A DNA stretch of 64,000 nucleotides from Acidobacteriota bacterium (GTDB taxonomy: Bacteria; Acidobacteriota; Thermoanaerobaculia; Gp7-AA8): the NCBI GenBank assembly GCA_019244185.1, contig JAFATB010000023.1, forward strand, positions 416,001 to 480,000, written 5' to 3'. The notes below the pieces were generated by a model. It made no database searches, had not been told where the DNA came from, and was given only the letters and a program-made list of their open reading frames with translations. Below are positions 41,864 through 46,054 of the stretch, in pieces. Numbering within the stretch: the first letter of the stretch is position 1; the number at the start of each line of letters is the position of its first letter. The position numbers and the translations under genes are program-made.

Positions 41864-42098
41864 TCACGGTCGTCGTTCCCGCACAGAACTGTAGGAATGC
41901 GCCGCCTCAATGGAGGTGTGTCTGCCCGCTTTTCTTCAGCGGGTAGGGAAATCAGGCGTGCCGTCACTCCTTAAAGCGAGAGTGCTCTGAGACAAGAGGA
42001 AGTGTCGCTGTGTGCCGGCGACCGCGACTGCGACCGGCACCCATGATTCGTTCCGAAGGTCGTATTGGCGCGCTGCGGCGCCAAAAAGGAGCAACGAC

Positions 42099-43400
42099 AT
42101 GAAGACGGTGATGTTTGTTGCATTGTTCATGACGTCCTCACTGTCCGCCGATGAATTACCGGCGCTGCCGGCCTTTGCGCGCGTGCGCGCGGCCTCACAG
42201 GCTCACGACGGACAGGCAGTCGCGGCGTTGAAGCGCTTCTATGAAGGACGCGCGCTCATTGTGGGCGATTTTCGCTCGACGAACGATGCGTTGGCGCTGG
42301 CGGACGCCATTGAAGCAGCAGGCGGCCGTATCGATCAGATCGTCAATGACCGCGCTCTCGTGGGATTCATCCCCGCGGCCATCGATGAATTCGTGCGGCA
42401 TGCACCGGGCGTGCGTTTTTTCTCGCGAATTCCTGTCGTCGACCTGACAGCCGTCCCCTTCAATGACGATGAGGGCGTGCGCGGCGCGGTGCGACATTTC
42501 AATCGCACGCTCGACGGCTCGGTCCTCCGCGATCTGATGACCAGCGAGTTTCTCCCGCCGGACCGCGACGTCATTGTGGCGCCGGAATCGAGCGTGCCCG
42601 TCGTGAGCACGCAGGACGTGCACGCGCAGGCGGCCGTGCGCAATGTCTCGATGACCGGCCGCATCGGCATTACGTTTCATTTCGTGGAGAGCAACGGCGC
42701 CATCGACGCGGACGAATTCACCTGGACGCCGGCCGACCGCGGCACGATCATCACCCGCGCGCAGGACGGTTACGACTGGTGGCAGTCGCAGGCGAACGCG
42801 CGCGGCAAATCGATCCTCTACACGATCCGCTTCCTGTCGACGCCAGGAAACGCACAGGAGTACGAGCCCTACGAGCCGATCCGCCATCCCGTGAATCACA
42901 AGAGCTATCTCTGGGTGAACCCGATCATGGCCAACTTCGGCTACACGATGACGGACCCGGATCAGGAGATTCAAGCGCTCCGCCGTGTCGATGCGTACAA
43001 CGAGGCCTTGCGCGCCACGATCAACGCGCAGGCGACCTTCTCCGTTTTCGTCATCTACAACCCGAGCCCGGCGCCGACGACGCACACGGACGGTTTCTAT
43101 ACGCTGACGTATTTCGGCGGGCCATGGATGGATCACCCGTTCCGGCCGGGCGGCTATCCGACGTCGTCGTGGGGCTGGGTGCTGGCACACGAGATGGCGC
43201 ACGTCTTCTGGGCGTGCGACGAGTACGCGCCGGTCTGCACCACGTGCAGTTACTGCTTCCCAGGGCAGGGGCCACGTCCGACGACGCCGAACGGAAACTG
43301 CGACAATCCATGCAACACGACTCCGACCGCCTGCATCATGCGCATTGTGAACCCGAGCCAGCCGGTGTGCTCGTATACGGCGACGCAGATCGGCTGGTGA
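42099..43400 (+). CDS. Secreted zinc metalloprotease
   Basis: Signal peptide, AAAGGAG RBS, HEMAHVFWACDEY (HExxH...DEY), Cys-rich C-terminus with CIM (Met-turn-like). Confidence 0.8.
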   Translation: MKTVMFVALFMTSSLSADELPALPAFARVRAASQAHDGQAVAALKRFYEGRALIVGDFRSTNDALALADAIEAAGGRIDQIVNDRALVGFIPAAIDEFVRHAPGVRFFSRIPVVDLTAVPFNDDEGVRGAVRHFNRTLDGSVLRDLMTSEFLPPDRDVIVAPESSVPVVSTQDVHAQAAVRNVSMTGRIGITFHFVESNGAIDADEFTWTPADRGTIITRAQDGYDWWQSQANARGKSILYTIRFLSTPGNAQEYEPYEPIRHPVNHKSYLWVNPIMANFGYTMTDPDQEIQALRRVDAYNEALRATINAQATFSVFVIYNPSPAPTTHTDGFYTLTYFGGPWMDHPFRPGGYPTSSWGWVLAHEMAHVFWACDEYAPVCTTCSYCFPGQGPRPTTPNGNCDNPCNTTPTACIMRIVNPSQPVCSYTATQIGW

Positions 43401-43419: not shown

Positions 43420-44112
43420 ATGCGACGTTTGATGGTCACGGCACTTCTTCTGATCGCGGTTCGCCTCCACGCCATCGAGTTCGAACGGGTCCTGCTGCCC
43501 ATCACGGTGCTGGACGTGCCGGGCGCGTACGGTTCGTTATGGCGCTCCGAGGCGTGGGCGGACATTCGGGAATCCGGCGTCACGATTCTGCTCGTGCGGC
43601 AGACGCATGCGAATCCGCAGCCTCCCGGCAGTCAGCAACTGTCGATCTTTTTCAACGGACCGGGACAAGAGCCTGGCCAGTTTCTCCAGGTGACGCGCGG
43701 CGCCCAGATCTCGTTCAACCTGCGTATTCGAGATCTCTCGCGTGCTGCCGAGACGTGGGGCACGGAAATCCCCGTCGTGTGGGAACGCGACTTCCGCACG
43801 ACGGTCACGCTGCTCCCCATTCCGGCGAACGACGAGTTTCGCAGCACGGTGCGCATCTATGGCGGCACCGCGGGCGACGTGCGCGTGCGCGTCACGGATC
43901 TCGAGACATCAGCCGTGTTATCGGACGACGTGATCTCGCTGCCGGCGACCATCTCCGAGTACCAGCCGCCCTACGCCGAACTGAATCTCCCCACGAACGC
44001 GAACCTCATGCGCGTCGACGTCGACGCGGTATCGCCCGATCTGCGCTTCTGGGCGTTCGCCTCCGTGACGAACAACGCGACGCAGCACGTGACGACGATC
44101 TCGCCGCAGTGA
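43420..44112 (+). CDS. Secreted hypothetical protein, tandem paralogue 1
   Basis: 230 aa, signal peptide, GGAGG RBS. Motifs ERVLLP, GAYGSLW, EIPVV, WAFASVTNN.TQ. Confidence 0.85.
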   Translation: MRRLMVTALLLIAVRLHAIEFERVLLPITVLDVPGAYGSLWRSEAWADIRESGVTILLVRQTHANPQPPGSQQLSIFFNGPGQEPGQFLQVTRGAQISFNLRIRDLSRAAETWGTEIPVVWERDFRTTVTLLPIPANDEFRSTVRIYGGTAGDVRVRVTDLETSAVLSDDVISLPATISEYQPPYAELNLPTNANLMRVDVDAVSPDLRFWAFASVTNNATQHVTTISPQ

Positions 44113-44144
44113 GGGCATCGCGCCGCAGAATGAGACAGACGGTT

Positions 44145-44837
44145 ATGCGACGTTTGACGCTTGCAGCACTCATCCTGATCGCCGTTCGCCTCCATGCGTT
44201 CGATGCCGAGCGGGTCTTGCTGCCGATTGCGGTTCAGCAGGTGCCGGGCGCATACGGTTCGCTGTGGACGTCCGACGTCTGGGCCGATATTCGCGCAGCC
44301 GGCGTGTCGATCGTCCCGCTACGCATTACAGACACGAATCCGCAATTTCCCGGCAGTCAGGAACTGCCGGTCGTGCTGTTCGAAGCTGGCCATCCACCAG
44401 GCCTCTTCCTCGAGGTATCGCGCGGCGCGGCCATCACCTTCAATCTGCGTATTCGAGATCTCTCGCGCGCCACCGAAACGTGGGGTACGGAAATCCCGGT
44501 TGTTTGGGAACGTGACTTCCGCACGACGGTCACGCTGCTCCCCATTCCGGCGAGCGACGAATTTCGCAGCACTGTGCGCATCTACGGCGGAACCGCGGGC
44601 GACGTGCGCGTGCGCGTCACGGATATCGAGACCTCCACGGTGTTGTCGGACGACGTGATCTCGCTGCCGGCGACAATCTCGGAGTTCCAGCCGCCCTACG
44701 CCGAACTGAATCTCTCGCCAAACGCGAACCTCATGCGCGTCGACGTCGACGCGGTGTCGCCCGATCTGCGCTTCTGGGCGTTCGCCTCCGTGACGAACAA
44801 CGCGACGCAGCACGTCACGACGATCTCGCCGCAGTGA
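44145..44837 (+). CDS. Secreted hypothetical protein, tandem paralogue 2
   Basis: 230 aa, collinear and ungapped against paralogue 1. True ATG is at 44145. Confidence 0.85.
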   Translation: MRRLTLAALILIAVRLHAFDAERVLLPIAVQQVPGAYGSLWTSDVWADIRAAGVSIVPLRITDTNPQFPGSQELPVVLFEAGHPPGLFLEVSRGAAITFNLRIRDLSRATETWGTEIPVVWERDFRTTVTLLPIPASDEFRSTVRIYGGTAGDVRVRVTDIETSTVLSDDVISLPATISEFQPPYAELNLSPNANLMRVDVDAVSPDLRFWAFASVTNNATQHVTTISPQ

Positions 44838-44890
44838 CGTCGCTGGCGTCGACTCTCGTGCTACGATCCGCTCCCTTCAGGAGGTGCAAC

Positions 44891-45136
44891 ATGCGCAAGC
44901 ACACTGATTACGAGAACCTCGCTTCCTTTTGAGCGGTCGAGCAAACGGAGGAAGGGGATATCCATCCGAAACGAACGTGCGGCGAGGGCCGCGCGTCGTG
45001 CACGGCGACAAGGTTCTGCTCGAGAAGCTTGGACGCAACGATCCCTGCCCCTGCGGCTCCGCACGCCGGTTTCAAACACTGCTGCATGAAGACCGGCGAC
45101 TTCGACGGGCAGCGGCGCGATCACTATGAACGGTAG
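44891..45136 (+). CDS. Small SEC-C motif protein interrupted by three +1 frame transitions
   Basis: TGnTACGAT box, GGAGGT RBS, ATG 44891. Joined frames read [32 protein letters not shown]...[36 protein letters not shown]. Confidence 0.7.
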
Positions 45137-45143
45137 CCACCGC

Positions 45144-45170
45144 GGCCGCGGGCGAAACACGCCCGCGGCC
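45144..45170 (+). terminator. 11-bp GC hairpin after the SEC-C gene
   Basis: GGCCGCGGGCG-aaaca-CGCCCGCGGCC, 7 nt after the TAG at 45136. No U-tract. Confidence 0.5.
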
Positions 45171-45199
45171 CGCGACGCGTGCGATACACTTCGCGGCCG

Positions 45200-46054
45200 A
45201 TGATCCGGCAGATTTCCGTTCTCGGCACCGGCACGATGGGGCGCGGCATCGCGTATCTCGCGGTCGTCGCGGGCTACGACGCGGTGCTCTTCGACGTCGA
45301 CTCCGCGGCGCTCGACGCGGCGAAAGCGTCCATCGAGTCGCTGCTCCGCAAGGCCGTGGAGAAGGGGAAGCTGAAGGATGGAGACGCCGCCGACGCGGGG
45401 GCGCGCCTGCAGCTCGTCCCCGAGCTCGAGCCGGCGGTGAGCGGCGCGGATCTCATCATCGAGGCGGTGCCGGAGATCGCGGAACTGAAGATCGATCTCT
45501 TCGCGCAGGCCGATCTCTTCTGCGGCGTCGACACGATCCTCGCGTCGAACACGTCGTCGATCTCGATCACGCAACTGGCCTCGAACGTCGAGCGTCGCGA
45601 CCGCTTCGTCGGGATGCACTTCTTCAATCCGCCGCACGTGATGAAGCTGATCGAGATCGTACGCGGCGAGCGCACCAGCGACGCGACGGTCGATCAGGTG
45701 CGCGCGGTCGCGGAGAAGATGGGCAAGACGCCGATCGTCGTGCGCGACAGTCCCGGCTTCGCCACCTCACGCCTCGGCGTGGCCATCGGACTCGAGGCGA
45801 TTCGCATGCTCGAAGAAGGCGTCGCCGAGGCCGAAGACATCGACCGCGCCATGGAGCTCGGCTACAACCATCCGATGGGACCGCTGCGTCTCACCGATCT
45901 CGTCGGCCTCGACGTGCGCCTCGGCATCGCGGAGTATCTCGCCGCGACCCTCGGCCCGCGCTTCGACCCGCCGCAACTCCTCCGCGACAAAGTCGCGGAG
46001 GGGAAGCTGGGGAAGAAGACGGGCGAGGGCTTCTATCGCTGGCCGAGCGACTGA
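45200..46054 (+). CDS. 3-hydroxyacyl(butyryl)-CoA dehydrogenase
   Basis: GTGTMGRGIA, IEAVPE, LASNTSS, GMHFFNP, HPMGPL, LGKKTGEGFY. Confidence 0.94.
   Translation: MIRQISVLGTGTMGRGIAYLAVVAGYDAVLFDVDSAALDAAKASIESLLRKAVEKGKLKDGDAADAGARLQLVPELEPAVSGADLIIEAVPEIAELKIDLFAQADLFCGVDTILASNTSSISITQLASNVERRDRFVGMHFFNPPHVMKLIEIVRGERTSDATVDQVRAVAEKMGKTPIVVRDSPGFATSRLGVAIGLEAIRMLEEGVAEAEDIDRAMELGYNHPMGPLRLTDLVGLDVRLGIAEYLAATLGPRFDPPQLLRDKVAEGKLGKKTGEGFYRWPSD

Follow-up and report, generated by a model that had tools for sequence, protein, structure and literature searches.

Candidate serial +1 frameshift sites in a widespread bacterial gene family for a small SEC-C protein

Here, we describe a small SEC-C protein gene whose full product can be read only if the reading frame moves forward by one nucleotide three times. 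The gene lies in a 64,000-nucleotide stretch of an Acidobacteriota bacterium genome (assembly GCA_019244185.1, contig JAFATB010000023.1, positions 416,001 to 480,000; hereafter the window), at window positions 44891-45137 on the plus strand, and its joined reading, with a net shift of +3, is a protein of 80 residues. A preceding annotation of the window made from its letters (the sequence-only reading) had proposed these three same-direction transitions, and we find them in the window and a need for exactly three +1 shifts in all 18 intact copies of the gene in the window's bacterial family. The evidence assembled below strongly supports the three interruptions being real, same-direction, selected recoding sites and not errors or decay, and programmed +1 ribosomal frameshifting is probably the way the protein is made. 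As judged by sequence comparison, the gene encodes a widespread, highly conserved small basic protein built on a SecA-type Cys-x-Cys-x8-Cys-Cys metal-binding motif. Its family looks like the second widespread bacterial gene family, after that of release factor 2 (RF2, encoded by prfB), to depend on +1 frameshifting.

The frames can be followed directly on the window sequence. A strong ribosome-binding site and the ATG at 44891 open a first open reading frame (ORF1) of 13 codons that ends TCC TTT TGA, with the TGA at 44930-44932, just as the sequence-only reading had it, and that ATG and the final TAG (45135-45137) stand in one frame. The second transition had been placed within AAGGGG; its location holds, and comparison with homologues narrows the slip to GGG followed by A (44955-44958). 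The last transition was said to complete the SEC-C motif, and it does so: against the Pfam model (PF02810, gathering score 20.4 bits) the uncorrected frame scores 27.3 bits over model positions 1-14 of 19, and with UUU_C read as one step the match reaches 37.4 bits over positions 1-19 in the window and 38.5 bits in L019, a relative of the same genus. The annotated product of an unshifted gene had been foreseen to end in RRFQ, and one Thermoanaerobaculia protein entry does end in RRFQEVLHALRPL.

The joined protein is that of a large natural family. We used the joined reading of L019 (P0001, 77 residues), to which the window is 76% identical, as the search query, and it matched 2054 protein clusters at E ≤ 1e-3, many of them 70-89% identical and from other phyla. 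P0001 aligns to 19 family sequences at 65-88% identity, and no gap falls at the junctions; most of these are uninterrupted natural proteins of other phyla, for example a 75-residue protein of Desulfatibacillum alkenivorans, and the 38 residues between the second and third window sites likewise align gap-free to uninterrupted proteins from other phyla. The joined reading is similar over its full length to the family pattern, SKRRKG(Y/F)PSET.VK(R/K)G ... EKLGRND.CPCGS ... FK.CC ... G.(Y/F)DG..R..YF. Two metagenome proteins, P0004 and P0031, vary close to site 3. The sequence ..CPCDSGGVFKKCC.. in one of them is what would result if another indel, a few codons before the site, had made the frame continuous again, and the other reads RRFQALLQGSGRYDG, back in the tail frame without the two cysteines; these may be natural compensations or short-contig errors.

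Close relatives of the window keep the same architecture. Searching 41 genomes at the DNA level (that of the window and 40 relatives) yielded seven same-genus loci at 72-78% nucleotide identity to the window, and when 124 genomes of the bacterial family to which the window belongs were searched with the protein, 20 gave a strong match to the gene, spread over five genera; the other, weaker matches are largely the SEC-C motifs of SecA-sized reading frames. Of these 20 copies, L023 and L034 are decayed and 18 are intact, counting L017 (genome G002), without which the family counts stay valid as 17 of 17. Exactly three +1 shifts are needed in 18 of 18. Every intact gene also has a GGAGG, GGAG or GAGG element ahead of the ATG of an ORF1 of 10-13 codons, with (C/S)-F at its end. 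One clade, made up of the window, L033 and L030, carries the extra base at GGG_AUA and ends in frame as ..HY-x-R-stop. The other 15 genes are continuous through SSKRRKGYPSE and have instead a site of a fourth kind at the extreme C-terminus, where TAC TTT is followed by C CGC TGA, T AGA TGA, T AGG TGA or C AGG TGA. Slipping by +1 at this UUU_Y yields F-R-stop; the Arg codon is synonymously variable (CGC, AGA, AGG, CGG), and nucleotide conservation stops directly after the stop codon that the slip reaches.

Purifying selection acts on each of the three tested segments only in the frame that the joined reading assigns to it, as one would look for on the sequence-only reading. Pairwise Nei-Gojobori ratios of nonsynonymous to synonymous substitution rates (dN/dS) over the 18 intact genes are 0.118-0.185 in the segments' own frames and 1.03-3.03 in the others: ERSSKRRK gives 0.118 against 2.80 and 1.03, GYPSE..RRF 0.130 against 2.14 and 3.03, and KKCC..DHY 0.185 against 1.67 and 1.08. 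Differences between the genes concentrate at third positions of the proposed frames, and in the short segment between sites 1 and 2 of the three genes with a second site, Ser is kept through TCG, TCC and AGC and Lys through AAA and AAG. From its last stop up to the first conserved codon, the +1 frame is free of ATG, GTG and TTG in 14 of 18 genes, that of the window among them, so the second segment can be entered solely from ORF1; in seven genes this frame is open for merely 27-30 nucleotides (nt) ahead of segment 2. Three other ways around the first junction were considered and rejected: TTG 44929 as a direct start of the frame-C reading frame, because ERSSKRRKG is conserved as protein, with its dN/dS of 0.12; termination and reinitiation at site 1, because the +1 frame lacks a start codon in those 14 of 18 genes; and decoding of UGA as selenocysteine, for which a tRNA-SeC gene exists, yet the frame past the UGA is not the conserved one.

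The letters themselves recur in other assemblies. We compared the window over 44700-45400 with contigs from four metagenome runs (X1-X4; three further studies), which are assemblies and not raw reads. The contigs of X1 (possibly the source), X2 and X3 show no difference and no gap over 44786-45400, and that of X4, a diverged strain, has three substitutions and no indel in the gene: 44908 T>C is synonymous in the ATG frame, 44974 A>C changes Asn to His, and 44990 C>T changes Pro to Leu, the family consensus. The caution attached to the sequence-only reading, that homopolymer errors would give the same picture, is not borne out by these contigs or by the sites of the same kind in relatives.

Sites of this kind extend far beyond the window's family. 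A scan of one genome per species gave at least 597 confirmed loci, and the best 80 of these at least 597 were analysed by aligning P0001 to each with a purpose-written, frameshift-aware dynamic programme and placing the slip codon within the stops of both frames. The resulting set comprises 96 loci, 18 from the family and 78 others, after omission of L070 and L073 (duplicates of L028 and L025) and of the decayed L023 and L034. L070 and L073 come from public records labelled Thermoanaerobaculia, the class of Acidobacteriota to which the window's family therefore probably belongs. At least one +1 site is present in 77 of the 78 loci outside the family: a single locus (L054) has none, 22 have one, 37 have two and 18 have three, and the first junction could not be determined in 27 of the 78. 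Carriers belong to Acidobacteriota, Planctomycetota, Verrucomicrobiota, Pseudomonadota, Cyanobacteria, Gemmatimonadota and other groups, site positions vary by lineage, and isolates or complete genomes are among them (Stieleria magnilauensis TBK1r, Novipirellula sp. SH528, Massilia pinisoli JCM 31316, Hansschlegelia plantiphila VKM B-2347 and Acidobacteriaceae bacterium KBS 96). The sequence-only reading would have fallen had homologues in finished genomes all been single uninterrupted reading frames; most instead carry +1 sites, complete genomes of cultured isolates among them.

Table 1. Codons at the four recurrent junctions of the 96 aligned loci (underscore, boundary between slip codon and following zero-frame codon).
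Junction	Shift needed	Continuous	Remaining genes
F10/E11	TTT_TGA 21 (plus the window and L027, placed by hand), TTT_CGA 18, TTT_CAA 1	TTC 38, TTT + purine 12	
F57/K58	TTT_CAA 31, TTT_TAA 1	TTC 46, TTT + purine 9, other 5	
67/68	TTT_TGA 35, TTT_CGA 13, CTT_TGA 3, CTG_CGA 2, CTG_TGA 2	TAC 17, TAT 10, TTT + purine 6, TTC 3 (Tyr in 27 of 36)	
C-terminus	TTT_TAG 29, TTT_CAG 15, TTT_CCG 14 (+1 frame then reads R(D/E)0-2-stop)	17 genes with in-frame R(D/E)-stop: TTC, TTT + purine or a non-Phe codon	10 'other'; 10 direct stop with +1 frame outside the narrow pattern; 1 unaligned

The UUU_CAA site is shared by 14 loci of other phyla. At junction 67/68, Tyr is replaced by Phe or Leu where a site exists, and the nine-codon tail that follows is conserved in the new frame across 54 loci (D in 50, G in 51, R in 50, Y/F in 54), with differences most frequent at third codon positions (third 6744, first 3603, second 3279). 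In four Acidobacteriota loci the slip codon lies a few codons ahead of this junction, in CTT_CGG or CTT_TGG. In Planctomycetota loci such as L068, L088, L091, L100, L110, L119 and L124, a run of six to seven T (TTT TTT CGA) contains the first junction, and an ATG stands two codons on (FEPMSKRRKG); here the junction may represent a leader reading frame overlapping an independent start, or transcriptional slippage. A gene tree from 64 columns, in which 2 of 90 inner branches are well supported, does not distinguish a single origin with transfer from repeated origin. A phage origin was rejected, with three real family matches among 10 confirmed loci in a scan of viral contigs. Plasmid records contributed two decayed copies in Ca. 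Manganitrophus, and the other 21 plasmid records match the SEC-C motif of other proteins.

The junctions obey codon rules that point to the ribosome. At each window site the tRNA in the peptidyl (P) site can re-pair in the new frame, from UUU to UUU, GGG to GGA and UUU to UUC; sites with CUU elsewhere allow a move to UUY. The codons in the aminoacyl (A) site are stops or rare codons, UGA, AUA and CAA in the window and UGA, UAG, UAA, CGA and CAA elsewhere, with the exception of the C-terminal site of clade I, where the A-site codons CCG and CAG are common ones. In the window's genome, ATA accounts for 252 of 50,656 Ile codons (0.5%), CAA for 10.3% of Gln codons and TTT for 9.9% of Phe codons. 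The inserted base is always a pyrimidine ahead of GAR, GAY or AAR and therefore forms UGA/CGA or UAA/CAA; within each pair, a single transition converts one codon into the other. A Shine-Dalgarno (SD)-like core 2-6 nt upstream of the slip codon accompanies the need for a shift, occurring at site 2 in 3 of 3 shift-needing against 2 of 91 continuous loci, and at site 3 in 15 of 32 against 1 of 64; in 12 family genes Gly-Arg-Arg is spelled GGG AGG CGY, which gives GGGAGG-CGY-TTT at site 3. At sites 1 and 3 of the window, no SD-like element stands at 3-nt spacing.

These features bear out the resemblance of TTT-TGA to the prfB site that the sequence-only reading remarked on: a slippery codon is followed by UGA, and at site 2 a GGAGG precedes the slip codon by 3 nt. 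The genome's own prfB (contig C17, ~68380-68600, minus strand; locus L125) has a classical programmed site: ORF1 (..RSVRSYL) ends TAT CTT TGA C, and the +1 frame then encodes the body of RF2. According to PMC5009743, UUU_Ynn is notably +1-prone in bacteria, UCC_UUU_CGU is the influenza A cassette, and the RF2 genes of a minority of species have UUU_U in place of CUU_U.

Several observations weigh against programmed frameshifting as the route to the protein, or limit how the counts above should be taken. Since relatives are not independent, locus counts exceed the number of evolutionary events. Among the 4067 in-frame TTT codons in the 1916 long reading frames of the window's genome, 2791 precede C, and TTT_CAA occurs in frame 32 times; because in-frame TTT_C is not avoided in ordinary genes, the bare motif is not an efficient shifter. 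Window sites 1 and 3 thus need further stimulators or shift at low efficiency, and with three shifts in series the yield of protein would be very low unless all of them were efficient. A search for RNA runs containing this stretch listed none. The case of pheL, as reported, further illustrates that high frameshifting can be incidental. Finally, CTG_TGA or CTG_CGA at the residue-67 junction (4 loci) offers tRNA-Leu poor re-pairing in the +1 frame. These loci are L115 and L122 (Pirellulaceae, Novipirellula SH528), L081 and L104, and they may follow a different sub-mechanism, such as out-of-frame binding in the A site.

Among other explanations, the one that survives best is that no full-length protein is made: the zero-frame products, a leader peptide and truncated proteins, would be the functional ones, and the later frames would be conserved for other reasons. 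Termination at the UGA of the residue-67 site, which is common in Planctomycetota, does leave a complete SEC-C motif, such proteins of 62-66 residues are annotated, and the Planctomycetota ATG at ..FEPMSKRRKG could start the main reading frame, with the first site there perhaps an overlap with a leader. We nevertheless consider this account improbable, since the post-shift segments lack a start codon in 14 of 18 family genes, hold the last two cysteines, and show dN/dS of 0.12-0.19 in the shifted frames only, while the tail past residue 67 is conserved as protein. Searches against Rfam, moreover, gave no family match at E ≤ 1.

Somewhat less likely still is removal of the extra bases at the RNA level, by transcriptional slippage or editing, with translation of a then normal reading frame. 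Long T runs such as CAT TTT TTT CGA, with seven T, in several Planctomycetota loci would suit slippage. Polymerase slippage typically needs runs of about 7-9 or more, however, and most sites have just three or four identical bases (TTTC, TTTT, GGGG-A); stop or rare codons in the A site and SD-like elements at 3-nt spacing are, in addition, characteristic of ribosomal and not of transcriptional events.

A slowly decaying inherited pseudogene is very unlikely. The gene is patchily present (20 of 124 family genomes), it has no conserved neighbours, and decayed copies are known, all of which could be expected of a gene on its way out. Yet 18 diverged copies keep all three frames open with the same sites and no further indels, and change across them is biased to third positions. 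Real decay looks different, with deletions, internal stops and lost ligands: L023 (genome G088) has a replaced 5' end and a 4-nt duplication, L034 (G121) a 23-nt deletion that removes the CPC ligands, along with loss of the UGA, and L128 (Ca. Manganitrophus plasmid CP114562.1), next to an integrase gene, has lost cysteines and is broken by an in-frame stop.

We give even less credence to a dedicated tRNA that decodes four bases and reads UUUY as Phe. Nearly all sites are indeed UUU plus a pyrimidine. Against this, ARAGORN finds 55 ordinary tRNAs in the window's genome, with a single tRNA-Phe(GAA), a tRNA-SeC(TCA) and none flagged as odd; GGG_A, CUU_U, CUU_C and CUG_Y sites are beyond one tRNA; and the frequent in-frame TTT_C of ordinary genes would suffer damage. 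The genome's tRNA-Ile(GAT) and tRNA-Ala(TGC) are not among the 55, as is usual with unassembled ribosomal RNA operons. Least likely of all is homopolymer error in sequencing or assembly: the genome is a draft of 26 contigs, but the metagenome contigs from other studies are identical or indel-free in the gene, and sites of the same kind recur in 17 other family genomes, in nearly all loci elsewhere, and on the complete chromosomes of the isolates S. magnilauensis TBK1r and Novipirellula sp. SH528.

We therefore favor programmed +1 frameshifting, and infer that the shifts are ribosomal, along with what we say of their efficiency and purpose, from the observed architecture, conservation, selection and codon rules. 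In the mechanism we propose, translation would begin at ATG 44891, the only start codon, behind its strong SD sequence. At UCC_UUU_UGA a stop codon would occupy the A site, and slow release would let peptidyl-tRNA-Phe slip from UUU to the overlapping UUU, with decoding resuming at GAG. At GGG_AUA the A site would await the very rare AUA while, as in prfB, 16S rRNA pairs with the GGAGG that lies 3 nt upstream; tRNA-Gly would slip from GGG to GGA, and decoding would resume at UAU. At UUU_CAA tRNA-Phe would slip to UUC, after which KHCC, with the last two zinc ligands, would be read. Failure to shift would leave a 13-residue peptide at site 1, a frame-B product with an unrelated tail at site 2, and a protein without the last two cysteines at site 3. 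Output would then depend on three slip probabilities multiplied together; the time for which the A site is vacant (governed by release-factor activity and rare-tRNA supply) would set each of them, as would the frame-holding of tRNA-Phe.

What the protein does is suggested mainly by its motif. Databases name family members 'SEC-C metal-binding domain-containing protein' or 'nucleic acid-binding protein', and the family itself carries no name. The SEC-C motif alone has named and solved relatives, namely the metal-binding domain of SecA, YchJ and YecA (by sequence, it matches Protein Data Bank structures of the SecA domain and the YchJ C-terminus at E 1e-8 to 1e-5), whereas sequence searches gave no solved or named relative for the conserved N-terminal SKRRKGYPSETRVKRG.R.VHGDKEL or for the C-terminal GRYDG..R..YFR(D/E). 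AlphaFold2 models the natural uninterrupted homologue P0003 with a mean pLDDT (predicted local distance difference test) of 58.7, and the SEC-C part alone at 74-79. The SecA domain is reported to bind zinc or iron, SecB and ribosomes, with iron bound in vivo (10.1101/613315). Because a SecA-type motif binds these partners, a role linked to translation is a fair guess for the product.

On this basis, we tentatively propose that the gene, much like prfB, would respond steeply to the capacity for decoding and termination, as a gauge or homeostat of it. A 'sensor' of tRNA damage or of RF2 shortage, with the complete protein appearing only upon failure of frame maintenance, as the sequence-only reading suggested, is plausible. 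In a still wider and equally speculative proposal, the family would be an ancient, widespread second +1 system beside prfB, in which a ribosome- or RNA-binding zinc or iron protein is made through one to three serial gates, slips of tRNA-Phe at UUU_Y beside stops or hungry codons, and acts as a homeostat. Its output would climb steeply when termination by RF2 or RF1, the supply of rare tRNAs or the frame-holding of tRNA-Phe falters, for example through under-methylthiolated ms2i6A37 under iron shortage (MiaB is described as requiring an Fe-S cluster; PMC5699536). The protein would then feed back on the ribosome so that frame maintenance or release recovers. If this is true, the constant number of three sites in the intact genes of the window's family, despite the site swap of one clade, would imply selection on how many gates there are.

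The features of the window locus are collected in Table 2. The sequence-only reading also described a strong hairpin past the TAG and a -10-like box ahead of the gene. The hairpin is there, and a consensus scan for intrinsic terminators gave no terminator-like site on the gene's strand, this hairpin included; the box finds no support, with no promoter-like site at the gene in a simple sigma-70 consensus scan. Many family loci (L016-L031), not including the window, have an inverted repeat, GCGCTC-N4-GAGCG, about 10-30 nt upstream of the SD sequence, which may act as a regulatory hairpin or as a terminator for the gene before it.

Table 2. Features of the SEC-C gene in the window (positions are those of the window).
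Feature	Position	Strand	Remarks
Shine-Dalgarno GGAGG	44880..44884	+	6 nt 5' of ATG 44891
Segment 1, frame A, 13 codons	44891..44929	+	sole segment with a start codon
Shift site 1, UUU_UGA, preceded by UCC	44927..44932	+	TTTTGA invariant in 19/20 family loci
Segment 2a, frame B, ERSSKRRKG	44931..44957	+	dN/dS 0.12 in own frame
Internal SD-like GGAGG	44947..44951	+	exactly 3 nt (AAG) ahead of site-2 P-site codon GGG
Shift site 2, GGG_AUA	44955..44960	+	extra base relative to 15 continuous family genes (SSKRRKGYPSE)
Segment 2b, frame C, 38 residues	44959..45072	+	first half of SEC-C from 45031; dN/dS 0.13
Shift site 3, UUU_CAA	45070..45075	+	TTTCAA invariant in 20/20 family loci
Segment 3, frame A again, 20 residues and TAG	45074..45137	+	last two SEC-C Cys at 45080-45085
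G+C-rich hairpin without U tract	45141..45174	+	-34.9 kcal/mol, z -2.74, 3/200 shuffles as stable

The SEC-C gene is single-copy in the genome. Around it, the window encodes two paralogous proteins without a Pfam match, a 3-hydroxyacyl-coenzyme A dehydrogenase and a transglutaminase/tetratricopeptide repeat protein. The paralogues stand in tandem at 43420-44109 and 44130-44834 on the plus strand (230 and 235 residues, 186 of 236 aligned columns identical), and both begin with a hydrophobic, signal-peptide-like stretch; just upstream, at 42012-43397, is a 462-residue protein with a HEMAH motif and no Pfam match. A 258-codon antisense reading frame at 44861-45637 (minus strand) overlaps the SEC-C and dehydrogenase genes; it is probably a spurious product of high G+C content, the plus-strand gene having strong Pfam matches. 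No neighbour is conserved among the 20 family loci, and the RNA-repair genes that the sequence-only reading thought worth looking for are found neither in the window's neighbourhood nor as shared neighbours of those loci.

The family matters in several ways. Current annotation truncates or misses these genes, which appear as proteins of 62-66 residues, as proteins with RRFQ... endings, or not at all. They add what is probably a translation-tied protein to the set of very conserved small proteins, and they offer a natural series of sites (UUU_UGA, UUU_CGA, UUU_CAA, UUU_UAG, CUU_UGA and GGG_AUA, with and without SD-like elements) on which rules of frame maintenance can be tested. Full-text literature searches gave no paper on recoding in this SEC-C family, and passages of two large surveys (PMC3711429, PMC5009743) do not mention it.

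Several known systems resemble parts of what we describe. SecA, YecA and YchJ share with the family the roughly 20 residues of the SEC-C motif (PF02810), ending -x-RRFK-x-CC, but the protein described here is free-standing and no tail on a larger one. The influenza A PA-X, plant amalgavirus (UUU_CGN and UCC_UUU_CGU) and YopN-TyeA (UUU_Ynn) cassettes use the same tetranucleotide, according to PMC5009743 and PMC5052127. The likeness extends to the first junction, where L066, L083 and L103 have UCC_UUU_CGA and the window has UCC_UUU_UGA. Each of the known cassettes is a lone site in a viral or virulence gene, whereas here the sites are chromosomal, serial and family-wide. Genes of Euplotes with several +1 shifts at AAA_UAA or AAA_UAG likewise place multiple +1 frameshifts at stop codons in one coding sequence; there, this is the genome-wide result of altered termination, and here it concerns one gene family in cells with otherwise normal decoding.

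The closest parallel is prfB, to our knowledge the only widely conserved bacterial chromosomal gene for which a need of +1 frameshifting is known. In either case a short ORF1 ends in a slippery codon and UGA, where the P-site tRNA slips, or in the SEC-C gene would slip, by +1 during slow release, and in both the arrangement is conserved across species. The spacing of the prfB stimulator is 3 nt as a rule, and an SD-like element stands 3 nt upstream at site 2 of the window and at site 3 of 12 family genes; L086, L066 and L072 even use CUU_UGA with an upstream AGGAGG. The SEC-C family differs from prfB in having up to three sites per gene instead of one, a P-site codon that is mostly UUU and not CUU, A-site codons that can be the rare sense codons AUA, CAA or CGA, a product that is no release factor, and site positions that differ among lineages.

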